Made by a program: the position numbers and the translations under genes
Notes under the pieces: model-generated
The model's input: only the letters and a program-made list of their open reading frames with translations
What the model was told of the DNA's origin: nothing
Database searches by the model: none
NCBI GenBank assembly: GCA_030614005.1
Contig: JAUWKS010000016.1
Span: 27,560-59,559 of the forward strand
Direction: 5' to 3'
DNA from: Candidatus Heimdallarchaeota archaeon
Lineage (GTDB): Archaea; Asgardarchaeota; Heimdallarchaeia; JABLTI01
DNA length: 32,000 nucleotides
Shown here: in pieces, positions 2,620 to 29,945 of the stretch
Layout of the letters: every line of letters begins with the position of its first letter
Position numbering within the stretch: the stretch's first letter is position 1

Positions 2620-3714
2620 TTATTGACGAGAACTTGATATTGCGTTGCGAACTTTTTCTTCATATTTGAAGAAGGCTTCTTGTATTTTTCCAAGGAATTC
2701 GCCACTTTCTTTGAACTTCTCAGAGGAGTAATCCCTGGCACTTACAGCAAAAGCCATCATTCTTGTTGCTGTATAAACTTCATAAAAGAATATCCTATTT
2801 CCAATGTCAGGTAATTTAACCTTTGAATAATAGGTATTGTAAAAATGGTGTCTGTAACTATCCAGCTCAGGATATAATGAGAAAAAGAACAAGGTCCATC
2901 CAGCATCTAAAGCAGGGTCGCCTAAACGTGAATATTCCCAATCAATCAAGCCGGTTACTTTTGCGCCTTTGACCATAATATTTCTCGGTTGTGGATCACC
3001 ATGAAGAAGAGAGAATCTATCCAATTTGAGTTGCTTCTTGAAAGACATAAACCATTTACCAAGCGGATCGACATAATATCCTGCCTTCCTTAAGAAATTC
3101 AGAGAGCGATTAATATCATTCAAAATATATTTATCGTAAGGAATTTCTTCTTTAATGATTCCTTTTGGTGTTTCCATACCGTAATTCTTGAAACGGTAAT
3201 TATGTAGATTAACCAGATATTGCACAAATCCCGTTATTACTTTTTCAAAATCTGCTGGGGTGTATGTTTTGATAGCTTGCTCAAGTGTTACACCGGGAAT
3301 TCGTTCAATGATTGAAAATGGATAACCCAATATTTTTGAGTCTACTTCTAAGATATAGGGTTTGGGAACGGGTATTGGTGCTCCTTGTAATCGACCCAAT
3401 TTATTAAATTCTCTTTGAGGTTTTAATGAATCATGTTTTTCAGGGTAAATTCTTAGTACTACACTCTTTCTTATTTCTTGTCCCGAAAGAATAAACTTGA
3501 TCTCAAAGAAAAATACTTTATTTGACATTCCAGTTTGAATTCGTTCAGGGGTATCTATGGAAATTAATTGTGAATTCTTTGGAATAAGTAACCATATCTT
3601 ACCTGACTCTATAAGGTAATTCTTTAATCTTTGTTGGATTTCAACGACAGGTAATAATGGTTTCATAATCCTCGTTTTCCTGAGTAATATCTTTTGTAAA
3701 TTGTCAATAAACAA
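2620..3714 (-). CDS. Aminoglycoside phosphotransferase/choline kinase-like phosphotransferase
   Basis: VLRIYP, REF, PVPKP, LHGDPQPRNIMV (Brenner motif), LIDWE, GDPALD. The ATG at 3666 (MKPLL) may be the true start. Confidence 0.85.
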   Translation of the reverse strand: MFIDNLQKILLRKTRIMKPLLPVVEIQQRLKNYLIESGKIWLLIPKNSQLISIDTPERIQTGMSNKVFFFEIKFILSGQEIRKSVVLRIYPEKHDSLKPQREFNKLGRLQGAPIPVPKPYILEVDSKILGYPFSIIERIPGVTLEQAIKTYTPADFEKVITGFVQYLVNLHNYRFKNYGMETPKGIIKEEIPYDKYILNDINRSLNFLRKAGYYVDPLGKWFMSFKKQLKLDRFSLLHGDPQPRNIMVKGAKVTGLIDWEYSRLGDPALDAGWTLFFFSLYPELDSYRHHFYNTYYSKVKLPDIGNRIFFYEVYTATRMMAFAVSARDYSSEKFKESGEFLGKIQEAFFKYEEKVRNAISSSRQ

Positions 3715-4855: not shown

Positions 4856-6130
4856 TTGACTATTCATCCCGGTGTGTTTCTGATGGCTAAAGAAGTACCA
4901 AAACAAAAAAAATCTGATATTGGACCAAATTTGAAAGATTTCAGTGGGTTGATCCGAGCGGGTAATATTTTTCTCTCACAATCGAATAGAACTCGGAAAG
5001 CTATGTTAAATCAAAGCGATAAGCTCCTTGAATTTCGTGATTTACTCCTCGAAACCAAAAAGAAAAGAAAAATTGTTCATGTTACAGGTATGGGGCGCTC
5101 AGGCAGAGCAGCGCAATTCTTTGCTGAACTTTTAAAAGATCTTGGCTATCATGTATCAATTATTGGTAAAACCCTTGCGTTACCTGTTTCAATAGATGAT
5201 GTTGTTATAAGTTTTTCAGGTTCAGGAAAAACTACAACCACTGTTGCAAATGTTGGTGTTTGTGTAGATGGTGGGGCTAAAATCGTAACCTTGACGCAAA
5301 ATGAACATTCACGACTTGGCAGGTTAGCAGATATCTGTCTTTTAGTACCAAAAACAAAAAAATTACAGAGAGCAGAAGAGCCACTTGAAATTGAAACAGA
5401 CAAGGGATTTGTTGTAGCTGTTAGCCAAATTCCAGATGATATGAAAAGCTCACTTTCTCCAATGGGTACTTTGTTTGAATTATCAGCTCTATTAGTATCA
5501 ATAGGTATAACTGGAATGTTACATAGTGAAGATGAACCAATTAAAGCATTTCAAAGTACTATGGATTCAGTCATTGATAATGCCGAAAAAGCTGTTCAAA
5601 AAATCATTAAGAAAGAAAAAACACAAGATGAAATTATTAGAGTAATGAAATTTTTCATTGATCTTAGTCCAGCATCCACTAAGAAAGTTTTTTGGGTTGG
5701 TGCGGGTCTCAGTGGTATTGTTGCTTCAATGCATGCTATGAGGTTTCAGCACTTGGGTTACAACATTCATTTACAAGATGATTGGAGATTCAGAAAGAAA
5801 AACGATATCATAGTAGCAATCAGTGGGAGTGGAAGCACTCCATTTACAAATAGTTTCGTTAAAGAAGCTAAGAAAAAAGGTATGGCAACTATTGGATTCA
5901 CTTCTTTAGTTAATTCAGAATTTGGTAAGCATACAGATATCACCGTTAAAGTAACAGGTAGATTGGATCCAGAAAGCTGGTATAATAGATTATCTGAAAA
6001 TAAACCATTTATTGAAACGCAATTTGAATATGCTGCTGCAATAGTAATTGAAAGTATAATTGCCCAATTAGCAATCCATAAAGGAATTACAGAAACAGAA
6101 ATGAAAGGTCGACATGCAAATATCGAATAG
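4856..6130 (+). CDS. Tandem-SIS protein, two 6-phospho-3-hexuloisomerase (PHI/HxlB)-like domains
   Basis: Domain 1: GMGRSG, SFSGSGKT, SPMGTLFE. Domain 2: GAGLSG, AISGSGST, TQFE, C-terminal MKGRHANIE. Likely start is ATG 4883 (MAKEV). Confidence 0.8.
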   Translation: MTIHPGVFLMAKEVPKQKKSDIGPNLKDFSGLIRAGNIFLSQSNRTRKAMLNQSDKLLEFRDLLLETKKKRKIVHVTGMGRSGRAAQFFAELLKDLGYHVSIIGKTLALPVSIDDVVISFSGSGKTTTTVANVGVCVDGGAKIVTLTQNEHSRLGRLADICLLVPKTKKLQRAEEPLEIETDKGFVVAVSQIPDDMKSSLSPMGTLFELSALLVSIGITGMLHSEDEPIKAFQSTMDSVIDNAEKAVQKIIKKEKTQDEIIRVMKFFIDLSPASTKKVFWVGAGLSGIVASMHAMRFQHLGYNIHLQDDWRFRKKNDIIVAISGSGSTPFTNSFVKEAKKKGMATIGFTSLVNSEFGKHTDITVKVTGRLDPESWYNRLSENKPFIETQFEYAAAIVIESIIAQLAIHKGITETEMKGRHANIE

Positions 6131-6175
6131 AAACTAGAAAATAATCACTAATTGCATAATTGACAACACATTTAA

Positions 6176-17238: not shown

Positions 17239-19011
17239 TTAGTAAACCTTCCAAGATTCCTTATCATAATCATATAACTCGTGGTAGGGTATGAATTTCG
17301 ATTTCATTATTTTAATTGTGTAAAAAGTTGGAAAAATACCAGACTTATTGAAAAGAGTCTCAATAGTATTTCTAATTGGATGTTGGGCATTAGCTCCAGG
17401 TATTGTTAGAATTATCGAATCATAAACATTCATTTGTCCGAAAAAAGAGAAAACACGAAGCTGCTCAATAATGTCATTTATTTCTTTTTCCTTAGAAAAA
17501 TCAAGCAATGGAATTTCAACATTTAAAATATCCGAACCTCGTCTATTGAAATTTAGCATAAAAAGAGAGTATGATAGAAGGTCTCTACGCCTTGCTCTAA
17601 TTTCGATTTGATTGAGAAAATCCATTTTCTCACTTATGATGGAATCAGACAATTTATTTTTTTCATATAATTTGGAGAGTTCGTTAACCCAAACAGTGTA
17701 ATTTGCTCTAACTAAATATCTTCCTTTTAATAGAGATAAAAAGTAAAGAAGATTATAATCAAGTGATTCTGAATAGTACTCAAATTCAGTTGAAAAATCT
17801 CGTTTTTCATCAGCAAAGAGATATTTTCTTAAATTTTCTTGTTCACCATTAACGAATGAGTTAAAATTTTCAATTGTATTTTTATACGGATAGGAAGTAA
17901 CTGTGCCATAGTGAATTTTTCTTCGTACTAATTGAATACTATAATCATCAATTAAATTCTTGTCCTTATACCTTGACAAAAGTCTTGCCAGATTATCACT
18001 TGAAGTATGAGGGCATAATAGGGTAGCAGAGTAAAGAATAGTCGATTGTTCAGTTTCACCTGAAAACAAAGACTTCAAATATGGATTCTCAGATATCTTA
18101 TCAGCGATAATATCAATATTTTTCGTTTCCTTTAATGAAACTTTAACATAATAATTATGAAGATTCAATTTTTGAAAATTGAATACTGCTCTCCAAAAAG
18201 TATAGAAAGTAGAGGTTAATCCTTCAAAATATTTTCTAACTGTAGACTGATTAACTTCTAAATTACGGCTGATTTGTTTGGTTGTTCCACCTTCAAACCC
18301 ATATTTCAATAATTGATCTAATACATTGATTAATTTCCAGTTGATGTATATCGGAGCTATTACGTCATCGATTTTTACTGTTAGATTTGTTACCCAATTG
18401 CTAAAAGAACTAACTCTTTTTTCTGATGAGGGATCATCTACATTCGAATAATAATCAAATAATGACTTAGATGGTATATCCATACTAAATAACAGATTCA
18501 GTAAACTTTGCCATAACTGATAACTTGAATTTGCTATTTCATCTGGAAATATTTTCGAATTAATCCGTATAAAGAGAACATTGCTTATTGAAGAAATTTT
18601 CTCAATTTCTTTGATAAATAAATAACTTAGAATATTGATCAATGATTGATCGAAATCAGAAAATTTCCGTTTAAAAATAATTAAGAAACATGATTTAATT
18701 AAGAAAAAGTATAAGAAGAATTTTCTTGTCCTTGTTGCTGAATCTAAAGCCCATTTTGATAGAATCAATATATTGTCTCTAAATTTTAAACCGATATCAG
18801 TGCAATTTTCTTCATCAATATCTTCAACTCTAATTTCAAAAGAAAAGTCATTATCTATTATAATTCCATAATAATCTGCAACGTTTTTTAGTAAAGCTGA
18901 AACAGCTTTATGAAAAAAAGTTTGGATAACATCAGGTTCTTCGTTTGTTTCTATTTTTTCAAGAAATTTCAGAATTTCCTTTTTGATAATGGAACTCATT
19001 ATCTTATTCAA
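17239..19011 (-). CDS. Large HTH/Lrp-AsnC-like putative transcription regulator with unknown N-terminal domain
   Basis: Central HTH TTKQISRNLEVNQSTVRKYFEGL followed by FNFQKLNLHNYYVKV (Lrp linker, NxxKLGL-like) and a ferredoxin-like/RAM region; a second degenerate unit appears near the C-terminus. Confidence 0.6.
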   Translation of the reverse strand: MNKIMSSIIKKEILKFLEKIETNEEPDVIQTFFHKAVSALLKNVADYYGIIIDNDFSFEIRVEDIDEENCTDIGLKFRDNILILSKWALDSATRTRKFFLYFFLIKSCFLIIFKRKFSDFDQSLINILSYLFIKEIEKISSISNVLFIRINSKIFPDEIANSSYQLWQSLLNLLFSMDIPSKSLFDYYSNVDDPSSEKRVSSFSNWVTNLTVKIDDVIAPIYINWKLINVLDQLLKYGFEGGTTKQISRNLEVNQSTVRKYFEGLTSTFYTFWRAVFNFQKLNLHNYYVKVSLKETKNIDIIADKISENPYLKSLFSGETEQSTILYSATLLCPHTSSDNLARLLSRYKDKNLIDDYSIQLVRRKIHYGTVTSYPYKNTIENFNSFVNGEQENLRKYLFADEKRDFSTEFEYYSESLDYNLLYFLSLLKGRYLVRANYTVWVNELSKLYEKNKLSDSIISEKMDFLNQIEIRARRRDLLSYSLFMLNFNRRGSDILNVEIPLLDFSKEKEINDIIEQLRVFSFFGQMNVYDSIILTIPGANAQHPIRNTIETLFNKSGIFPTFYTIKIMKSKFIPYHELYDYDKESWKVY

Positions 19012-19051
19012 ATACGCTATGCTTTTATGTGTTTTTATCCCTTGATTAGAG

Positions 19052-19092
19052 AAAAAAAGAATTGTTGAGAAGAATGTGTATTATTTCTTCTC
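19052..19092 (-). terminator. Hairpin + U-tract (intrinsic terminator/attenuator-like)
   Basis: Minus strand GAGAAGAA-ataatacaca-TTCTTCTC (perfect 8-bp stem), then aacaattc and T7. Confidence 0.55.
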
Positions 19093-19115
19093 GATAGTGG
19101 GTACTTGTTAATTGT

Positions 19116-19262
19116 TTAAAATAAACTAGTATCGGTTGGGCTTGCGCCATTTTCGGTTTCAGATACTCCGCCAATTGCTTCGTCTAAAGTTATCCCACCA
19201 GCTACCAATAAGGAAAGCAGCATTACGACTATTGTAGTTACTTTTGGATTGATTTTCTTCAA
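19116..19262 (-). CDS. Unannotated 48-aa small protein with signal-peptide-like N-terminus
   Basis: TTG start with GAGGT 9 nt upstream; MKKINPKVTTIVVMLLSLLVAGGITLDEAIGGVSETENGASPTDTSLF*. Basic n-region, hydrophobic h-region, acidic tail; below the ORF-track cutoff. Confidence 0.6.
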   Translation of the reverse strand: MKKINPKVTTIVVMLLSLLVAGGITLDEAIGGVSETENGASPTDTSLF

Positions 19263-19287
19263 CTCGTTCGAACCTCGTTAAATAATC

Positions 19288-19310
19288 TAGTGTGTGGATT
19301 AAGCACACTA
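19288..19310. promoter_or_regulatory. Palindrome, candidate operator or 5'-leader hairpin upstream of the small ORF
   Basis: TAGTGTG-N9-CACACTA; a TATA-like ATAAATATAAATA lies upstream on the minus strand near 19337-19349. Confidence 0.4.
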
Positions 19311-19998
19311 TTAAGCTAGTCTTACAAAGATAGTGCTATTTATATTTATCGTAAAAAATAGGTCTTTATTTAATAGATAAAACATTTTTTTGAAAGTTCT
19401 ACTGACAAAAATAACATTGTCCAGAGAAAGTCTAGAAACAAACTTAAAGAAATACTCAGAAAAATGGTCTTTCAATCAAAGGAAAGCGGGACAAACCAGA
19501 AAAAAAAGATTTAGTCGGCTCCTTGAGCCTCCTTAATTCTATCTAGAAAACGTTGTGCTTCCTTTAAACGTGGATTTATTTCTAATATTTTCTGAATTGC
19601 TTCAATAAATAGATCAAAAAAGAATGATGAATATTTTGCAGAAGCAGAGAGATTTACTCACGCATAAAAGGCAATGTTCCAGAAGTAAAATTCAAAGAAT
19701 TTCTCAAGGAGTAAAAAGCAATAAACAGGGAAGCTGATGAAGAAACAATTCAATGGTTACAAAATCATATTGTTTTCATCAATGAGATGAATATAGATAG
19801 TGCAACAGTATACATCTTCTTACGTAGCTTAAATTACCAAAAATAGAAAAATGACTACTTTATTGCAAAAAGTTGCAGATTTAATTGATTTTAACATTTT
19901 GTAAAATAAAAATCACCTTTGAGAAGAAATTAAGCCCCAGAATGTTTTTAATTTATATCGATTTATTGTTATTCAGTTTTTCTGGAGAGAGAAGAAAT

Positions 19999-20460
19999 AT
20001 GAGTGAAACAAAATACTGTCCAATCTGTGGAACAATGAATGATACTTAAAATGTTTTTTGTGGTAACTGTGGAAGCAATATGGATCAACCAGCTAATTCA
20101 ACACCCACCATCCAACCAATCCCTCAACCTCAACACTCACCACCACAAGAAACTCAGAGAATGTATTCTACTCAATATGTAGCAAAACCCCAAACAAGTT
20201 CACCAACAACATTAGGAATTATCGGGTTTATACTGAACATTATTACTTTTGTTGGATTGTCATGGGGGAGTTGGGTGGTCCGTCTCTATTTAGTAATAAT
20301 CTTCTTTGTTGTAGCAATAGCAGGGATAATTATGTCAGCTACTTCAATCAAGAAAAGTAGAACATTAAGTGTTGTAGGATTAGTCTTAGGAATATTAGGA
20401 GCATTGCCAATTCTTGGAGCATTGTTTATATTGATAATATTTTATATAATGATCCTATAA
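19999..20460 (+). pseudogene. Zinc-ribbon membrane protein with in-frame TAA (20047-20049)
   Basis: ATG 19999 reads MSETKYCPICGTMNDT*NVFCGNCGSNMDQ..., in frame with ORF 20080..20460 (P/Q-rich linker plus TM helices). Confidence 0.7.
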
Positions 20461-20856: not shown

Positions 20857-22311
20857 CTACTTTTGATTGATTGTGAAATAAAATGTTGCACCCTGATTTA
20901 TTTCCCCTTCAGCCCAAATCTTTCCATCAAGTTTTTGAATTATACGCTTAACAGTAGCCAAACCAATACCCGACCCTTCAAATTCTTCAATAGTATGTAA
21001 TCGCTGGAAAACTCCAAAGAGTTTATCAATATATTTCATATCAAAACCAACACCATTATCCCTTACAAAAAAGACAGTCGTGTTATCTTGATCTAATGTA
21101 CCGAATTCGATTTTTGGATTGGAATTTGCTGTTGAAAATTTCAAAGCATTACCAAAGAGATTTTCAAGAATGATACGAATAAGCTTCGGATCGCTGTTAA
21201 TAGACATATCTTCTTGAATGTGATATACCACTTTATAATCAGGATATAGTAAAAGTAAATCTTTCAGTATGTCATCTGCTAGATTACTTAAATCAATAGA
21301 TTCTATATTATAATCAGTATAACGTAAAGTGTTTGATAACTTGAGCAAATCAGTAATTAAATGGTCCATTCTATCACTACTTTTTATTATTCTCTCGAGA
21401 AAATCTTTTCCTTCCGCATCAAGGTTACTTGAAAAATCTTGTGAAAGAGCTTTACTAAAACCCTGTATGCTTCGCAGAGGAGATTTAAGATCATGACTAA
21501 CTGAATAAGAAAATGATTCGAGCTCTTCGAGAGCTTCTTTGAGTTGTAATGTTCGCTCGGTTACTTCGTCTTCGAGATGTACACTTAGTATACGGTATTT
21601 TTCTTCCGAGGATGCTAGCCGTGATTCAACGGGTGCAGCTAACGCTGTGGTCAACATAAGCGTAATAAAAACGAAATTAAATGCATAGTTCAAAGGATGA
21701 CCCCACCAAGCATAAACTGTTAATATAGTAGTTGTTGCAGTAACTGCTCCAATAATAAAAGTATAGAACATAAATAAGCGAGTAATTGTTCTTTGTTTGC
21801 GATAAATCTTCATCACAAGAAACAAAATTGGAACAAGTAAAGTAATCATCAGCAAAGCGATTACCACTAAAATAGTAAGAAACAAGAATAATTGCAACAG
21901 TATAATAATTAAAATACAAAACAAAAGTGAAACAGAAAATATTAGTACTAGAAATTTTTTCTCATTCTTCGAATGATGTTCATCGGTTATAGGCTTAAAT
22001 ACTGACAAATAATATTCTTTGAATGTTGAAGCAATTACTACTAATAATGCTATTACAATAAGACCATTACCAACATAGGCAATTTTAGGATTTACTTGTT
22101 TAAAAATAAATAAAACATGACTGATGGCGTAAATAATAATTGCTATGAACCAATCTCGAAGGTCAGGTCTTTTTCTCCAAGAAAACCAAAATATAAAGAA
22201 AGTAAAAACTACTTGTACTGCCATTAATATGTTAAGTATCAATATAAATTGATCAACCATCAAAATCACAAGTGAATTTATTGTCTTTCCGAAATTTAAC
22301 CTAGTAACCAT
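20857..22311 (-). CDS. Membrane sensor histidine kinase (about 7 TM + HisKA + HATPase_c)
   Basis: H-box FSYSVSHDLKSPL, N-box NLFGNALKF, G1 DNGVGF, F-box LFGVFQRLH, G2 GSGIGLA; about seven hydrophobic N-terminal segments. Confidence 0.92.
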   Translation of the reverse strand: MVTRLNFGKTINSLVILMVDQFILILNILMAVQVVFTFFIFWFSWRKRPDLRDWFIAIIIYAISHVLFIFKQVNPKIAYVGNGLIVIALLVVIASTFKEYYLSVFKPITDEHHSKNEKKFLVLIFSVSLLFCILIIILLQLFLFLTILVVIALLMITLLVPILFLVMKIYRKQRTITRLFMFYTFIIGAVTATTTILTVYAWWGHPLNYAFNFVFITLMLTTALAAPVESRLASSEEKYRILSVHLEDEVTERTLQLKEALEELESFSYSVSHDLKSPLRSIQGFSKALSQDFSSNLDAEGKDFLERIIKSSDRMDHLITDLLKLSNTLRYTDYNIESIDLSNLADDILKDLLLLYPDYKVVYHIQEDMSINSDPKLIRIILENLFGNALKFSTANSNPKIEFGTLDQDNTTVFFVRDNGVGFDMKYIDKLFGVFQRLHTIEEFEGSGIGLATVKRIIQKLDGKIWAEGEINQGATFYFTINQK

Positions 22312-22448
22312 TGTTGTTCTGTTATAAATCTCTTATTCTAGATGATGTTTGCAGAATCAGCTGGAAGAGAAAAAAAAGAAGAAATATGCACTCAAAACGA
22401 GTACTAAGTGATGTTGATTAATCTTGCAAGTCTTAAATGAATTTAATA

Positions 22449-25261
22449 TTATTTCTGAAGTAGAGTTACTATTTGTTTTCTTTGCATAGTAAATAGGAAT
22501 GGTTGGAGTGTAAGTAATGTAGTGATTGAAAGGAGAGGTATTAAAAATAGAATATAAACTGGTTTTATGTTGATCGCAATAGGAATAATAATTTGATCCA
22601 TAAAAAATGGAGGAGTAATTGTTAATGCCAAATAAACTAGTAGAAAACCTATCGACAAACCAAATAAAATACTTAGAAATAAAATAAAAACAAGTTCAAT
22701 TAGCAATTCTTTGTACAAATTTTTGAAAGTATTTCCAAGAGCAAAATAGATACTTTCAGCGAACTTTCTTTTATGTAAAGAAAAATTTAAACAACCAACA
22801 ATTAAAGAGGAGCTAAGGAGAATAACAAGAATAGTTTCCAGATAAAGGTAAAAATGTATGTCAGGCAAATATTTTGCAACATAATCTCTGATTGTGCTAT
22901 CTACAGAGATAGCGGGATTTACTTTAGTTATAATAGAAGATGACATTAACTTTTCAGTAACTTCAGACAAGGTATAATCAGGTTCCTTAGAGGCAAAAAA
23001 TAATTCAACATTTAATAGTTGATAATCTGTTATCATACGAATTTCATGTATAAAAACAAAATCACTATTGGTATCAGTAGATAAGCCAAATCCAGGAGCG
23101 GAATGCAAAATTCCAACTATTAAAAATGAAGAATCACCTTGCCCGTACAGAGTTTGAATGTCTCTGATTTTTATTAAATCACCTATGTTATAATTATAGA
23201 TATCAGCTAATCCCTCACTGATAATTATTCCATAAGGCTGTAAGGTCAATTGATGCAATAATTCTGAAGTATTCATATTTTGATAAGAAGAAGGATAATA
23301 TTTCTCATTAAAACTACTTGGATGCCATCGAGCGATACGAGCAAATTTGTCAGGATTAACACCATAGATGGTAATAGATCTGTACAAAACTTTGCCTGAG
23401 AGCTCAAAAAAAGGCATTGCTTCCGTTATTTCTTCATAGTTTCTGAGTGTATTTGAAAACTGGTAATCTGTTTCGACTGTATGAATACGTAAATCTGCTC
23501 CTTCGTTGTAAAAAATAGTTTGTTGTTCATTATTATTTAATGAATTTGCTATTGTTAAATTGGTTATAGAAGAGGAAAAAAACACCATTGCTAATAATAG
23601 AATAACACCGATTTCATTTCTATTGGATTTGAAATTTTGAACAAGAAAGAAACCAGTATGGGGGAACAATTTCCTAAAAATTTTCTTTGATTTGGATAGC
23701 AAGAAAACTATTCCTATTGATAAAAGAATAAGAAAACACTGGGAGAAAATTAGAAACAATGCGAGAAGAAATGCACTGTCTTTTACATGAGAGAGAGAAT
23801 AAGGACTAACATAAGCGATTTCCTGAGAAAAAACAATAGAACGATAAATCAGATAGCCCAGTAAGGACAAGGTCAATACTATCCCAGATATCAACGAAAT
23901 GTTGAACAGAAATTTTATTCGTTCCTTTTTCTGCCTTTCTTCCAGCACTTGGTTAATCGAGTGATTCGTTCGAAGCACTACAAATAGAATAGTAGTAAAA
24001 ATGAAAATTGCTAAAGTGATAAAATAAGAGAGAAAAGGAAATTTCAGTACAGCAAGAAAGGTAGTAAAAACTTCAAACGAAGAATTTCCAGATGACAATG
24101 TGGGAATCAATGCTGCAAAGAGAAATGAACAAAGCAAAGAGATAAGGGATACAAAAAGTATGATTAGAGTAAACTCGGTGCTTAACAAGCTGATAATTTG
24201 ATTTCGACCAGCATTTCTAGCTGCCAAAGTTTTGATACTATTTTTTCTCTCAGCAATAATAAGATTAGAAACAATCAGTGATGACAATAATCCCAAAGTG
24301 ACAATTGGGATAAGAATAATGAAGTATAAATTTGCTTGATGAAATGCTAAAGATAATTCGGTGAAAGGTTCTTCGAGAAGATAAGCAAATATCGAAGGAT
24401 TTCTAGTAGTCAAAATATCGCGGAAATATACCGCCTGAGAATAGAGACCATCTATTCCATTTTGAGACATAAACTCATTAGTTAATTTTGACAGAATAAT
24501 AGGATATAATCCATTGTCCTCCATTAGCTCGATATCTAAACCATCAAGATTGTCACGCAAGAAAATAACAGAATTATAAAGATAATTACGAGCAAAAGCT
24601 TCTTGTAACGTTGTGAATGAGGGTATCACTTGGTAAATACCTCGAACAGTTACATTGTAAAAATGAAGAGGTTGATAAGCTAATAGTATTGTATGATAAC
24701 CAATTTCTGGGCTATTTCGACAGATACTAAGATTTATCTGCATCCCAGGAACAATCATTTGATTGGTGGCAATTGATAGCTGTTGTGCTTGACTAGTACT
24801 AAGAAGCACTTCATTCTCTTCTAGAGAAAAATCACATCAACAGTAAATTGATGGTCAATACGTTCTAGAGCTTCTTGTGTTGGCAATAACAAGGAAGAAA
24901 GGAATACTGGTCTTTCTTGATCCAATTGTGATTCATACGGAAGAAAGGAGTAAAATGGATCTTTATCCACTGCATTGAATAACGCACTGTTATAATAATA
25001 TTCATCAGCAGAAAGGACTTCTGATTGATTTTCAAGCCAGCTAGTTATATCATGTATTGTAGCCGGATTAAAAGAATGAATTCTCAATTCGTAATCTACA
25101 TCACCCATGAAATCATCAATAAGAAAATCTTCAGAAGATTGCGACCAGAGAGTCAAGGAAAATAGAATAGTCATTGAAATAAAGATACTAAGAGCAAAGA
25201 GTAGCGTCTTTCGCTTATGGTTCATAATATTCCGAAATGAATGGGTTAGAAAAAACCTCAT
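22449..25261 (-). pseudogene. FtsX/MacB-type ABC permease split by a 1-nt deletion (about 937 aa if repaired)
   Basis: ORFs 24821..25261 and 22449..24809 join as ...FTVD-G-DFSLEENEVLLS if one G is restored at 24835. Two FtsX repeats (LAARNAGRNQI; EGADLRI). Confidence 0.8.
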
Positions 25262-25388
25262 TATAACCGACCCTTCTATTCCTCAATGGACTATTATGGT
25301 TTGAATACTTAACTATTATCCAAAATTTTTTTGGTTTAATCTATTTAAATTAAATGTAAAATTTTGTAGGAAAAAATCCCCTTTTTAC

Positions 25389-27041
25389 TTATTTGACTAA
25401 ACCATCTTTGGAAATCTGACCATCAATTAGTTGAACGATTCTCATACCATTTTTTAACAAATTAATATCATGGGTAGCAATTATTATCGTAAGGTTATAC
25501 TTTTGATGAAGCTCATAGATGCGATTCATTACTTGTTCCGCTAATTCAGCATCCATATTTGCTGTGGGTTCATCGAGAATTAAAATACTTGGAGACTTAT
25601 AATTTGCAATAGCTAATGATGCTCTTTGTAATTCTCCACCTGAAATTTCAAGTGGATATGAATTTTTTCGATGAATTATCTCGAAATCTTCTAAGAGTTT
25701 GCTATTTTGTTCTAAATCTATTTGATCTGATCTTATTTTCTCGCCGGCTATAATATCTTTTAAAATGATATTTTCTTCAATAGTTAAATATGGATGCAGA
25801 TTTCCTTGTTGGGGAACTATGCCGAATGTTTCTAACCTGAACTGTGCTTTTTCTTCATCATTGAGGTTGCTAAAGTTTACACCCTTTATTATTATCTCTC
25901 CGAAAGAATGCAATTCAACTCCACTGATAAGTTTGATTAGTGTTGTTTTTCCAGAACCACTTGGACCTAAAATAAAAATTAGTTCCCCTTTGTGAATATT
26001 CAAGTTTATGTTTTTTAATGCTTCAACATTTTCTCCCTTTTTTTCATAGATTTTAGATATATTTCTAAATTTGATATCAATTTCTTGATCTTGATGATAA
26101 TCAGTTGGTATATCTTTTAAAATCAATTTCTTGCGTCTTACTTTCAGCTCTTTTAATACTATTTTTTCTATTGAAACTTTTTTTGGATTTCTTACTCGAA
26201 CATCAACATCCTCAGATATTTCGAATTCAACATCAGTCTGAATTTTTAATTTTTCGATAACTAAATCGGGTAATCGAACACTATTTGAAGAATCAAGTTG
26301 CCTTTTGTATCTTATTGGGAATTTTGTTTGTCCGCCATAGATCATTTGTTCTTCTTTACCCATGAGAATAGAAACACGACCATTTCGAATTTCACATGTT
26401 TTATCAACCCCCTCTAAAAACCGTTCATCATGGGTTACTACAAGAACTGTTGTACCAAAGCTGCGAGCGATATTTCGCAACGTTTCTTTGACTTTCTCTG
26501 TATTTTCACTATCAAGTTGACCCGTTGGTTCGTCACACAACAACAATGGAACTCTCTTAACAAGAGCACATGCAATAGCTGTTCTAATCATCTCTCCACC
26601 CGAAAGTAAGCGAACCTTTCGATTAGAAAGATGAGCAATCCCTAATTCATCTAGAATTTTTATTATATTAGATTCCATATTAGCAGTGTCATCAGGTTGG
26701 AGGCTGTAAACAAATACCATATTATCGTATACTGTTCCAGATAAAAAGAGGGTTCTTTCTGGAAATTGGTCAACAATACCAATGGTCTTTAATCGATAAT
26801 ACAATAATTCAGTTTGGTTTAGATCTTCGAGGGTATATTCTCCTACTCTTAGAAACCCACTAGATATTGTTTCAAATCCAGCTAAAATGTTGATTAAGGT
26901 TGTTTTTCCAGAACCGCTAGGGCCAACGATTGAAATAACTTCACCCTTGCCTACTTTTAAGTCAATTCCTCGTAAAGCAGGTACTTTTAGATTTGATGTT
27001 TCATCTAGATAGATTTTTATTAAATCTCTACATTCAATCAT
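25389..27041 (-). CDS. ABC ATPase with two MacB/LolD-type NBDs
   Basis: Two GPSGSGKT Walker A motifs, LSGGE/ISGGE signatures, CDEPT/LDEPT Walker B, VTHD/ATHD switches; GGAGTGA RBS overlaps the upstream stop. Confidence 0.92.
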   Translation of the reverse strand: MIECRDLIKIYLDETSNLKVPALRGIDLKVGKGEVISIVGPSGSGKTTLINILAGFETISSGFLRVGEYTLEDLNQTELLYYRLKTIGIVDQFPERTLFLSGTVYDNMVFVYSLQPDDTANMESNIIKILDELGIAHLSNRKVRLLSGGEMIRTAIACALVKRVPLLLCDEPTGQLDSENTEKVKETLRNIARSFGTTVLVVTHDERFLEGVDKTCEIRNGRVSILMGKEEQMIYGGQTKFPIRYKRQLDSSNSVRLPDLVIEKLKIQTDVEFEISEDVDVRVRNPKKVSIEKIVLKELKVRRKKLILKDIPTDYHQDQEIDIKFRNISKIYEKKGENVEALKNINLNIHKGELIFILGPSGSGKTTLIKLISGVELHSFGEIIIKGVNFSNLNDEEKAQFRLETFGIVPQQGNLHPYLTIEENIILKDIIAGEKIRSDQIDLEQNSKLLEDFEIIHRKNSYPLEISGGELQRASLAIANYKSPSILILDEPTANMDAELAEQVMNRIYELHQKYNLTIIIATHDINLLKNGMRIVQLIDGQISKDGLVK

Positions 27042-27047
27042 TTTACT

Positions 27048-29945
27048 TCACTCCTGTTTATGAGGCTTGTATCCTCTTATTAGTGGAATAATCCCACTCA
27101 ACCATCCTATTACTAATGTGAATACACTAGCAAATATTGCAATAATTATTATCCACCATGGTAACCAAAGAATAAATCTCAAATAATTTTCATATAACCC
27201 AAAAATTGCCGTACCTACAATTCGGACAAGTGGTATAAAAGCAAATATTGATACTAAAATAATTGGTAGAGCAATAAATAATAATTCAATTGAAAAATAT
27301 TGCCAAAGTTGTTTTCTTTTACATCCAATTCTATACATTGCTTCAATTATTCTTGTTCTTGCTTGATAGATATTTCTTGCTCCAATATATCCTATGATAA
27401 TTTGACTCAGAAGCGTTATTATCGAACTAAATATTATGAATGCTAGAAAAAAATCACTTATTTCCGAATGAAGTTTTAGCTCAATATCCTCTTGACTCAG
27501 AGCAGAAATACCATGTTCAAACAGCTTTTCCTTTATTAAAGTAGCATTAACATTTTCTTCAATTTTTATTATTAAGCTAGTTTCTTCATTTACTGGGATA
27601 TTATTTGAAGTATTATTGCACAGTTTATCCGCAGTATATCTATTAGTAACTATGTTATAGCTTTCCAGATTCATTAGGAAATTACTTTTGATAGGTTTTT
27701 TCAATAAAGGAAAACAATCAAAAATATCTACTAATACTAAATCTATGTCAGGAGTTAAACCTGTAAACCTGCTACTTGTAAGGATATCACCTGTCTCAAG
27801 ATTATAAGCTGAAGCGTACTCGGAATCTATTAGTATAGTGTCGTTTGTTTCTAACAAGTCAAGTTTTTCCAAATAACCTTCTATCTCATTTATAATATCT
27901 GTTTCAACTATTTCTTTGAAAATTGTTATATTTTCTATTTCTAGAATATTAATTGAAAATGCAGTTGGAAATGATCCCCATAAATTATCGCTATTTAGCT
28001 GCGTTGTTTTTACTTCAGTAATTGCTTCGATACTAGTTATATTTCTAATTGTTTCCTTTAACACTCCACTATCATCTTCCCAATCGAATACTATGAGGTC
28101 AGAACATCCTGCAGATAATTCTGATTCCAATTCATAATGATTATCAATTGATTTTGAAAGCACTAAACCTGGCAGTAATCCAATTCCAATAATCAATGCA
28201 AACATCACTATTGTATGATAATGAGCTCTATCTGTTCCTAAATGCTTCAATGAGAGTGTTAAGAAAGATTTCGTTTTTTGCCATGCACTTTTACTAATAG
28301 CCGTCCAAATGAGTGTGACAACTCTCGAGATTAATGAGAATATTGTGGTAACAACAAAGATAATACCAATTACCAGAAACAACCAAAAGATTGATTCAAG
28401 AGTAATTAGTGGGTTGATAAAATAAAGGTCAAAAGTATTTGTGTTAACAAACGCTGCTATTAGTAGTGCAATGATGACAAGTATCAATCCGATTATCAAA
28501 GAAACGGATTCCGTACTTGCCATAATTTCTCGCATTTTAGTTCTTTTCCTTTTGAAATGCTCGGAAGTGACTTTTGCTGTTTTATCTGCAATATTTCCTT
28601 CCAAAAGAAATCCAAGTATTGCAAAACTTATCCAAAATATCACAAGCGCAAAATAAATTGAAGGTTCTGATAATGAGCCAATATATGTAATGATACTGGT
28701 ATTCCCAATCATTAACGAGAAAAAGAAACCGACCACCACTCCCAAAATAAAACCTAAAAGAAAGCAAATACCGGAAATAAATACATTCTCAACAAAAATA
28801 ACTTTCCTAACAGTTTGTTCATTGAGTCCATGTAATTTCATAAGTCTGAATTTTGTTTCGAGTTCATATGAACCGATTTTTAGTGTTTGCATACAGAGTA
28901 AACCTATTAGGAAAATTAGCGGAGAACTAAGAGCAAAGACTCTAGAAGTTTCCACCGTCCAAGAGATATGAAAATCATATAATGCTTGATAGAGATCTGC
29001 TGCTAAAATGACATTCTGACTAAGGTATGAGGAAACGTATTTTTTTAGGGTGCGTTCATCAATTTTAAAATTATTCAAATATGTACGAATATGTTTTGCA
29101 TCCAGATTTTCTGTATCATAATCGAAGTCTGTTAAAATTGCTATGCTGCCATAATATCGAGAGTAACTATTTATCGTTTCATAGAGAAATGAAGATTTGG
29201 TGAAAAATACTTCTTCTGCATAAAAAATATTATAATTCAGTCTAACAATATCTTCCCAATTCAAAATATCCACAGACTTTTCTGCATGGTATAGGTTTGT
29301 AGCTATACCCTCAACAATACCTACAATTGTACAATTTTTAGCTACATCACTTTCATCTTTGTATCCATTTAATGCATAAATATCATTTAATTCAACAGTT
29401 GAAGTATTATCTTGCTTAAAATACAACAGTTCATTGGAATTTGTTGGCATTCTTCCTTCGGTGATACTATCTTCCATAATTGGTATTGTGGATTCGTCAA
29501 ATGTCATTAAGCCAATGTCTTTCCAGATGAGAAATGTTGGATGATAGTTAAATAATTGTACACTCATTGCTCCTGTATAATCCTCAGTAGCAATGTTTGG
29601 AACGATATCATTAGCCATTTCTGTAAAATCATCAATTGCTTTCTCGAGATAGTTAGATTCAAAATAAGGTGAAAGAGCATTATATTTACACGTATGTACA
29701 CTAATTTGGTTATCATTGTTCCAATCATAATTTGTAGCAATTTTATTATTAAAAAAACTTTGACGATAGGTAAACCAAACCATAAAAAAGGAAGTCAATA
29801 GCAAGAAGATTATTGTACCAGATATTATTGTTAAAAGTAAACGATTTTTCCCTGTTTTCAAAAACACCTTTAAAATATTCTTAAATACAATTTGTTTTTT
29901 TCTTTCAGATTTCTCCAATTCTGAAATATTTATCCAACCCCTCAA
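27048..29945 (-). CDS. FtsX/MacB-type ABC transporter permease (duplicated FtsX)
   Basis: 965 aa; two TM blocks each preceded by a large extracytoplasmic domain; LMKLHGL and AMYRIGC motifs; GCSDLIV. Confidence 0.85.
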   Translation of the reverse strand: MRGWINISELEKSERKKQIVFKNILKVFLKTGKNRLLLTIISGTIIFLLLTSFFMVWFTYRQSFFNNKIATNYDWNNDNQISVHTCKYNALSPYFESNYLEKAIDDFTEMANDIVPNIATEDYTGAMSVQLFNYHPTFLIWKDIGLMTFDESTIPIMEDSITEGRMPTNSNELLYFKQDNTSTVELNDIYALNGYKDESDVAKNCTIVGIVEGIATNLYHAEKSVDILNWEDIVRLNYNIFYAEEVFFTKSSFLYETINSYSRYYGSIAILTDFDYDTENLDAKHIRTYLNNFKIDERTLKKYVSSYLSQNVILAADLYQALYDFHISWTVETSRVFALSSPLIFLIGLLCMQTLKIGSYELETKFRLMKLHGLNEQTVRKVIFVENVFISGICFLLGFILGVVVGFFFSLMIGNTSIITYIGSLSEPSIYFALVIFWISFAILGFLLEGNIADKTAKVTSEHFKRKRTKMREIMASTESVSLIIGLILVIIALLIAAFVNTNTFDLYFINPLITLESIFWLFLVIGIIFVVTTIFSLISRVVTLIWTAISKSAWQKTKSFLTLSLKHLGTDRAHYHTIVMFALIIGIGLLPGLVLSKSIDNHYELESELSAGCSDLIVFDWEDDSGVLKETIRNITSIEAITEVKTTQLNSDNLWGSFPTAFSINILEIENITIFKEIVETDIINEIEGYLEKLDLLETNDTILIDSEYASAYNLETGDILTSSRFTGLTPDIDLVLVDIFDCFPLLKKPIKSNFLMNLESYNIVTNRYTADKLCNNTSNNIPVNEETSLIIKIEENVNATLIKEKLFEHGISALSQEDIELKLHSEISDFFLAFIIFSSIITLLSQIIIGYIGARNIYQARTRIIEAMYRIGCKRKQLWQYFSIELLFIALPIILVSIFAFIPLVRIVGTAIFGLYENYLRFILWLPWWIIIIAIFASVFTLVIGWLSGIIPLIRGYKPHKQE

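Follow-up and report, generated by a model that had tools for sequence, protein, structure and literature searches.

Our analysis of a 32,000-nucleotide (nt) stretch of a Candidatus Heimdallarchaeota genome (contig JAUWKS010000016.1, positions 27,560 to 59,559; hereafter "the window") identifies a conserved pair of neighbouring genes, one encoding a peptide of 48 amino acids (aa) and the other a receptor-like protein of about 590 aa; the pair appears to be a peptide-signalling system of a type so far undescribed in archaea. The computed part of the case consists of the pairing of the two genes, the coding constraint on the small one, the folds, and a controlled co-fold of the two products. The reading we favour, whose chances we put at about even, is that of a propeptide and its cytoplasmic receptor, similar to the bacterial RRNPP modules and built here on a receptor without tetratricopeptide repeats (TPRs). 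The initial annotation of this DNA had already suggested a peptide-signalling module on an Lrp-like receptor; every computational test that it proposed has come out in its favour, while the function it assigned is something we infer.

The pairing was counted in the 12 genomes (38 Mb) of one family-level lineage, which hold 41 matches to the large gene and 47 to the peptide gene. For 33 of the 36 large genes that could be assessed a peptide gene is found 20-1040 nt away, i.e. within 1.1 kb; three have none within 2 kb, and five lie at contig ends or outside the assessment. The small gene beside these 33 homologous regulators is the kind of neighbour that had been predicted for them, an open reading frame (ORF) of 43-50 codons with a conserved basic and hydrophobic (n/h) region and a variable tail. 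In the other direction, 36 of the 47 peptide genes adjoin a large gene, compared with about 0.2 expected by chance within 1.1 kb in 38 Mb. The pairing is far beyond chance, and a peptide family occurring independently of the regulator, a possibility raised at the outset, is not what was found: the family is almost never met away from it. The other peptide matches comprise seven orphan hits at six loci and four further genes outside the assessment.

Among 399 Asgard genomes the large-protein family is present in 13, and the peptide profile matches exactly the same 13, i.e. all 12 genomes of the lineage and one outside genome. The copies in the latter (G019, from another GTDB family; loci L009 and L025) hardly differ from those of a lineage member, at a branch length of about 0.008, which suggests mis-binned contigs or a very recent transfer. 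A search in reverse took four database peptides located on long contigs as its starting point; each of the four had a family member of 563-598 aa as its neighbour. No third conserved gene (exporter, peptidase or transporter) accompanies the pair in the loci examined, where the further neighbours vary from locus to locus.

Three gene layouts occur, and they track the receptor tree. In the window's clade the peptide gene lies upstream in the same orientation. The commonest layout, found in most clades at about 37% identity to the window protein, has it upstream and divergent across about 310-370 nt. In a clade at about 25% identity the two genes converge, the peptide gene lying downstream with its stop codon 20-47 nt from that of the large gene; a second copy is sometimes present upstream. 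The small ORF is thus not always upstream and co-oriented, as had been supposed, and the varied layouts imply that the pair was retained together through rearrangements. Each genome carries 2-6 pairs with distinct tails; in the window genome a paralogous pair on another contig (L002) was verified.

The features of the pair in the window, all on the minus strand, are given below in the order of transcription; L061 and L003 are the loci of an 80% and a 59% ortholog, respectively. The elements listed in the initial annotation (TATA-like box, palindrome, GAGGT, TTG-started ORF, hairpin with T-run, large ORF) are all present.

19336-19350, minus strand: TATA-like box of the peptide gene, GATAAATATAAATAG; its core is kept in L003, and L061 begins downstream of most of the box.
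19288-19310, minus strand: perfect 7-bp inverted repeat, TAGTGTG-N9-CACACTA, lying 3' of the TATA box and 5' of the ribosome-binding site (RBS).
19272-19276, minus strand: Shine-Dalgarno-like GAGGT, 9 nt 5' of the TTG start at 19262.
19116-19262, minus strand: peptide ORF, 48 aa, TTG start; matches the family hidden Markov model (HMM) with E 6e-21.
19049-19092, minus strand: stem-loop and T-rich run, with an 8-bp stem (19085-19092/19067-19074) and T7 at 19052-19058.
19022-19038, minus strand: A-rich TATA-like element as read from the sequence, about 25-40 nt 5' of ATG 18999, conserved in L061.
17239-19011, minus strand: ORF of the receptor-like protein, 590 aa from TTG 19011, more likely 586 aa from ATG 18999.
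18352-19011, minus strand: predicted N-terminal zincin-like domain, residues 1-220.
17812-18339, minus strand: predicted Lrp/AsnC-like module 1, residues about 225-400, winged helix-turn-helix (HTH) and RAM domain 1.
17242-17769, minus strand: predicted Lrp/AsnC-like module 2, residues about 415-590, divergent HTH and RAM domain 2.

The 48-aa ORF is confirmed as a real conserved gene. A family profile built from the first copies found matched 37 peptide genes in the fetched loci, all of them 43-50 aa long. The start codon stands at one aligned position (ATG in 26 of 34, TTG in five, GTG in three) and is preceded, 5-12 nt upstream, by a Shine-Dalgarno-like motif (GAGGT, AAGGTG or GGAGAC) or by the clade-specific CGAGTTGAAG. 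Conserved residues are written with two to five synonymous codons each (P6 as CCA, CCT, CCC and CCG; L16 and L19 with five each; G22 with three), and the differences between orthologs include in-frame 3-nt indels, the indels being multiples of three. The ratio of nonsynonymous to synonymous substitution (dN/dS) within clades is 0.16 for the head of the peptide and 0.34 for its tail, so that dN/dS, synonymous codons and aligned starts all attest the coding conservation that was to be checked. Among 5.8 billion proteins a profile search detected such peptides, 41-86 aa long, in at least 135 clusters; members with a name come from Heimdallarchaeota or "Asgard group" assemblies and are called hypothetical proteins. 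"Unannotated" is therefore correct for the window and incorrect elsewhere, since homologs carry that hypothetical-protein label in several public Heimdallarchaeota assemblies. Pfam and NCBIfam gave nothing above cut-off for either protein of the window pair, and a protein language-model atlas held no informative neighbour for the peptide.

All members share a head, a hydrophobic run and a tail. The head, M-K-K-(I/V/L/M)-N-P-K, is near-invariant, with a charge of +3. Next come 18-19 uncharged residues, the hydrophobic stretch amounting to about 13-19; positions 21-23 are occupied by small residues (A/G-G-G/S), G22 being present in at least 90% of the sequences. The tail comprises 20-27 residues, is mostly net negative and is clade-specific, either acidic or Gly-rich; examples of tail types are ...D-T-G-(I/L)-(F/W/Y), ...G-D-P-T-L-x-P-x-P-P-E-D-D-G-G-G and ...P-S-G-F-G-Q-G-D-A-G-T-G-G-G-G. 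In the window peptide the head reads MKKINPK, the 19-residue uncharged stretch ends in AGG and the 22-residue acidic tail ends in DTSLF. Two GG dipeptides had been pointed out in it as possible processing sites; the first (residues 22-23) is conserved family-wide and the second is not. By the positive-inside rule the tail should face the outside of the cell, and A/G-x-G/S at positions 21-23 fits the -3/-1 rule of a cleaved Sec signal. The [KR]-[GA] cleavage site of a class III signal peptide (archaeal type IV pilin-like) is not present before the hydrophobic stretch: the junction reads N-P-K and continues directly with V, I or L, with G or A at position -1 in 0 of 32 aligned members. Nor does the peptide resemble a double-glycine leader (class II bacteriocin/ComC type), its conserved GG ending a hydrophobic and not a hydrophilic segment. 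No transporter is conserved beside the pairs in the loci examined, with no genome-wide search aimed at C39 domains having been made, and the ATP-binding cassette (ABC) system near the window pair is of the MacB/FtsX type, as opposed to the C39-peptidase ABC exporter of double-glycine systems.

The large gene had been given as a 590-aa ORF. The ORF is there, but its start is more likely ATG 18999, giving 586 aa; this form is the protein-database entry (P0001), and its ATG recurs in the 80% ortholog. Clustered at 50% identity, its family comes to 85 representatives in 1.84 billion proteins, with lengths of about 570-620 aa in almost all cases, and the receptors span 563-625 aa across the loci examined. 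The AlphaFold2 (AF2) model (predicted local distance difference test, pLDDT, 87; predicted template-modelling score, pTM, 0.78) consists of a zincin-like domain followed by two modules of winged HTH plus RAM. At the level of the modelled fold, the assignment to tandem Lrp/AsnC modules is clear. Foldseek matches single modules to Lrp/AsnC structures (2dbb, 2p6t, 2cyy) with a probability of about 1, and the neighbours in AFDB and ESM Atlas are archaeal tandem proteins, with clusters in which 93-100% of the members carry a Pfam HTH_AsnC-type domain. The sequence itself yields a weak match of the family profile to Pyrococcus LrpA 1i1g (E 0.087, module 1) and sub-threshold Pfam HTH matches at residues 230-270 (E 0.02-0.2); PF13404 (HTH_AsnC-type) and PF01037 (AsnC_trans_reg) of Pfam do not match the large protein. 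The earlier term "Lrp-like" is accordingly right for the fold, whereas Pfam offers sub-threshold HTH matches only. It was also right that the receptor is not a TPR protein: no TPR match lies above the Pfam cut-off (TPR_CAND1, E 0.018, reaches 15.7 bits vs a cut-off of 32.8 bits), and the model contains the zincin-like domain and the two modules instead.

In Lrp/AsnC regulators the RAM domain is the type of domain that binds amino-acid effectors, and the regulatory principle of the family is ligand binding at the RAM-RAM interface. The large protein shares with them (Pyrococcus LrpA 1i1g, FL11, NMB0573) the module of winged HTH and RAM (beta-alpha-beta-beta-alpha-beta). It differs in having two modules in one chain plus a 220-aa N-terminal domain, with no Pfam-level sequence match, and the ligand we propose, the C-terminus of a peptide with its own gene, is not a free amino acid. 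Closer in architecture are tandem HTH_AsnC-type proteins of Thorarchaeota, Bathyarchaeota and DPANN (320-720 aa, from ESM Atlas and AFDB), which have the same two modules at TM 0.40-0.55 by query and in some cases also cover the N-domain, but which are undetectable by sequence from the large-protein family.

For the co-fold, the window's cognate pair was modelled in three runs against three controls, using our own alignments. The runs scored 0.70, 0.59 and 0.66 (median 0.66), the best of the three controls 0.00. The mark applied is reached by 58 of 80 solved complexes vs 2 of 110 mismatched pairs, counts that hold only roughly here because our own alignments were used. Confident contacts involve peptide residues 42-48, plus 30 and 40, and none in the head. 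On the receptor they fall on RAM strands, at 262-274 (confident at 270-274), 313-316, 327-330 and 365-367 of module 1 and at 484-497, 523-527, 536-538 and 566-571 of module 2. The last seven residues of the peptide are thereby placed between the two RAM domains, so that the co-fold proposed earlier did put the tail into the receptor; this supports binding but does not show it. No solved structure in which a RAM domain binds a protein chain is known to us, which makes recall of a solved structure by the co-fold unlikely. The pocket columns W273, R274, Y327 and K/R365 are conserved family-wide. Column 367 has H where the tail ends in D-T-G-hydrophobic, and R where its end is Gly or Asp, and receptor clades, tail types and gene arrangements track one another on the tree.

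Our favoured reading combines these elements as follows. The small gene, with its own promoter, RBS and terminator, would give rise to a pre-peptide of 43-50 aa, whose basic head and hydrophobic segment would direct it into or across the membrane with the N-terminus in and the C-terminus out. Cleavage might occur after the conserved A/G-G-G/S, and the clade-specific tail of 20-27 residues would be exposed or released outside the cell. It could be re-imported, e.g. by Opp/Dpp-type transporters of the genome, which has at least nine SBP_bac_5 (Opp/Dpp-type) binding-protein genes as permissive support for uptake. The last 5-7 tail residues would then be the ligand of the neighbouring cytoplasmic protein of ~590 aa, bound in the RAM-RAM cleft, and would alter the DNA-binding behaviour of its winged-HTH modules and hence transcription. 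The targets probably include the peptide gene itself, via the inverted repeat at its promoter. The 2-6 pairs per genome would act as parallel, specific channels, which their distinct tails fit. Export, cleavage, re-import, DNA binding and a role in cell-to-cell signalling are the steps we infer. Generalized to the family in Heimdallarchaeia, i.e. secreted, gene-encoded oligopeptide signals each read by its own cytoplasmic tandem-Lrp receptor via the RAM-RAM cleft, in 2-6 "pherotype-like" channels, the reading is a tentative one, to which we give slightly less than an even chance.

A comparison is offered by the RRNPP(A) systems of Bacillota and their phages (PlcR-PapR, Rap-Phr, NprR-NprX, Rgg-SHP, AimR-AimP), in which a propeptide gene likewise adjoins the gene of a cytoplasmic receptor (PMC10075063). 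The likeness extends to a propeptide with a basic N-terminus and a long hydrophobic centre, a predicted active part made of the C-terminal 5-7 residues, variable gene orientation, several paralogous pairs per genome, and orphans. RRNPP systems have been delimited by a Sec-secreted propeptide of 10-100 aa and a receptor of about 250-500 aa with TPRs, encoded by direct neighbours (PMC10075063). The Heimdallarchaeia pair agrees in propeptide size and gene adjacency and departs in the TPRs and in receptor size (563-625 aa vs 250-500). As to Sec secretion, the sequence features (head +3, run of 18-19, small residues at 21-23) fit a secretion signal and an uncleaved anchor equally. The receptor is non-homologous, without TPRs, and combines a zincin-like domain with two Lrp/AsnC modules. 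Also, the host is an Asgard archaeon and not one of the Bacillota, and secretion, processing and Opp-dependent uptake are conjectural here. By the TPR and receptor-size criteria, the system falls outside the RRNPP family.

Several points weigh against the propeptide/receptor reading. Six peptide loci and three large genes are orphans. Since the tail is predicted outside and the receptor has no signal peptide, an uptake step is required, and for this the general transporters are permissive context only. The hydrophobic stretch (19 residues in the window) would fit an uncleaved membrane anchor just as well. The head is far more conserved than the n-region of a generic Sec signal needs to be, which none of the models considered explains. 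Inverted repeats 5' of the peptide genes show no significant family-wide enrichment (6.70 vs 6.30 +/- 0.22). The co-fold runs agree on 18-36% of contacts, and the pLDDT of the co-fold partner is low (42-48, with a floor of 41). The tandem-Lrp fold is also used by the enzyme NirDL, so DNA binding is not assured. Finally, receptor-peptide co-variation was observed insofar as clades and tail types track together, but shared ancestry confounds it: as the members of a pair descend together, the match of pocket and tail is descriptive and not independent proof.

Of the alternatives, the one that survives best, although we regard it as unlikely, takes the peptide as a single-pass membrane micro-protein and local target of the neighbouring Lrp-like regulator, which would sense some other small ligand, e.g. 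an amino acid. Lrp/AsnC regulators are typically encoded beside their targets, often divergently, and the commonest layout of the pair, divergent across 310-370 nt, is classic for such regulator/target pairs. With 18-19 residues, the hydrophobic run could span the membrane as a helix, and in the window's clade there is a conserved inverted repeat at the peptide promoter. This repeat (19288-19310) is nearly invariant in the window, L061 and L003, where the peptide tail is less conserved, and is a candidate operator that would overlap the expected transcription start. As RNA its stability is unremarkable (z 0.03 vs shuffles); a 5' RNA structure was rejected for this reason, and a role at the DNA level is favoured. 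A general operator motif for the whole family was rejected as well, its enrichment not being significant and a clear repeat being found only in the window's clade and a few others. Yet a mere target would leave unexplained why clade-specific tails are under purifying selection and diversify with the receptor, and why the co-fold places the tail C-terminus in the inter-RAM cleft; moreover, the convergent layout, with 20-47 nt between stop codons, provides no shared promoter.

Rather improbable, in our estimation, is an interaction inside the cell or at the membrane without a diffusible signal. Here the receptor would bind the C-terminus of the pre-peptide before export (feedback, chaperone or immunity-like), or the uncleaved peptide would tether or sequester the regulator via its head MKKINPK. 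Such a scenario could dispense with re-import, is compatible with the direct contact that the co-fold supports, and would better explain the extreme conservation of the head. The head is near-invariant among pairs whose receptors share only about 24% identity and is thus far more conserved than the receptors. In a six-frame HMM search of the window genome this N-terminus was found on three peptide genes and on no larger protein; it is therefore not the organism's generic signal peptide, and its restriction to the peptide family suggests a specific recognition step. However, the confident co-fold contacts are confined to the tail (30, 40, 42-48) and spare the head, several diversified tails in one genome would be superfluous for a secretion monitor, and the data give no sign of the receptor at the membrane. 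The propeptide/receptor reading accommodates the diversified tails as separate channels.

The N-terminal domain and the best structural match of the body bear on an enzyme/substrate relationship, in which the large protein, instead of acting as a transcription factor, would process or modify the peptide in the manner of ribosomally synthesized and post-translationally modified peptides (RiPPs), by means of its zincin-like N-domain and NirDL-like body. Modelled alone (pLDDT 90), the N-domain has top structural matches that are nearly all zincin metallopeptidases, at modest Z-scores of 5-7.8 (DPP III 7.8, thermolysin 6.6, M1 aminopeptidases, minigluzincins), and its AFDB matches are M48 and IrrE-N-like proteins. 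The combination of a zincin-like domain with an HTH recalls ImmA/IrrE (COG2856) and HTH-associated zincin peptidases, an IrrE-N-like protein being among the AFDB matches; here the structural similarity is moderate (Z below 8) and HExxH is lacking. Neither HExxH nor HxxEH occurs in any of 72 full-length family members, and the window protein has K-S-C-F-L-I at the helix equivalent to the zincin active-site helix. With HExxH absent the domain is presumably not a protease, and we read it as a non-catalytic zincin-like domain. The tandem body has its best PDB match in the fused Lrp-like siroheme decarboxylase NirDL (4ch7, E 1.7e-6). With NirDL/AhbAB (4ch7, 4czc) it shares a tandem Lrp-like fold (TM by target 0.53), and they set a precedent for such a fold binding a ligand between its modules; those are haem d1/haem biosynthesis enzymes of about 300 aa without a zincin-like N-domain and at 11% identity, and no haem-pathway genes flank any locus examined. 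Although zincin-like folds, the NirDL match and a peptide C-terminus modelled in the cleft would suit an enzyme and its substrate, we consider this very improbable, because the motif is missing throughout (the window's clade also lacks the Glu and His found at the equivalent helix in other clades), no extra biosynthetic or export genes are conserved with the pair in the loci examined, the first HTH is AsnC-like in sequence and the structurally nearest clusters are HTH_AsnC-type regulators.

As for the elements between the two genes, the stem-loop (-8.5 kcal/mol) has a z vs shuffles of -2.75 in the window, -3.87 in L061 and -2.10 in L003, with a conserved stem and a variable loop, and together with the T run it is likely the terminator of the peptide transcript. 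The A-rich element at 19022-19038 suggests a separate promoter for the receptor gene, whose mRNA would be leaderless or have a short leader. A leader-peptide-controlled regulator, the other possibility named in the initial annotation, is rejected along with translational coupling and attenuation, since most loci have the small gene in divergent or convergent orientation and, in the window, the genes are separated by the conserved hairpin with T-run and the receptor's own TATA-like element. The sequencing runs containing the region are DNA only, from marine-sediment and cold-seep metagenomes, with no RNA run among those listed.

In the literature we found no peptide-and-receptor communication system described for any archaeon. 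According to a 2025 study, little is known of archaeal cell-cell communication, and the signals it lists for archaea are a carboxylated acyl-homoserine lactone (AHL), diketopiperazines and an unidentified small molecule only (PMC12240190). If our favoured reading is true, the pair would be the first peptide-based communication system in Archaea, convergent with bacterial RRNPP and using an unrelated receptor. Signalling by ribosomal peptides with a cytoplasmic receptor would then be an independent invention of the archaeal lineage closest to eukaryotes, and the ligand range of the Lrp/AsnC RAM domain would extend from amino acids to peptide C-termini. Small synthesizable ligands and a soluble receptor would make the system testable in vitro even though the organisms are uncultured. 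Homology-free searches for a small ORF next to a regulator miss systems of this type if they are limited to TPR receptors.

The orphan peptide genes have as neighbours a TPR protein, an enolase, an LVIVD-repeat protein, a thiamine pyrophosphate (TPP) enzyme and, twice, an M28 peptidase. One of them, a third peptide gene of the window genome with the tail of a distant clade (C34:6340-6492; L033:2341-2493, plus strand), is convergent, at 56 nt, to the gene of a 772-aa TPR protein; a third receptor gene to match it is absent from the genome, which is 90% complete. A link to the TPR protein as receptor was rejected: an 85%-identical ortholog in another genome and 11 other paralogs checked have no peptide gene beside them, which makes the adjacency incidental. 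Two further orphans, L068:3120-3254 (G084:C105) and L069:3001-3135 (G085:C295), are convergent to genes of M28-family peptidases of 705 and 721 aa, for which a role in peptide processing is conceivable from the sequence; at the former locus a second, stop-interrupted peptide copy lies in tandem. Beside the three orphan receptor genes, none of the small hydrophobic ORFs is family-like. Other KKINPK-coding DNA matches in related genomes were discarded, eight of nine lying inside unrelated larger genes and one being a real peptide locus.

At L004, response-regulator receiver genes (2770-3153 and 5791-6150) lie on both sides of the receptor gene, and the longer contig of this place has a second receptor/peptide pair within 1 kb. 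A rhomboid protease gene (L048:4672-5379) is found about 1 kb from one peptide gene, at one locus only. Some large-family matches (G086:C192, G080:C106, G084:C69, G084:C68) contain in-frame TAG or TAA and may be pseudogenes or read-through of upstream sequence.

Elsewhere in the window, positions 20857-29945 of the minus strand hold a histidine kinase gene (HisKA and HATPase) and, upstream of it, the MacB/FtsX-type ABC system, which comprises two large permease genes (786 and 965 aa) and a double-ATPase gene (550 aa). This layout is reminiscent of Bce-type peptide-sensing modules and is not conserved beside the orthologous pair in L003. On the plus strand, at 19885-20460, a short ORF ends in a zinc-ribbon-like CPICG motif and is followed 30 nt on by a Pro/Gln-rich membrane protein of 126 aa with a weak DUF2157 match; the two ORFs could be parts of a single gene interrupted by a stop or frameshift.

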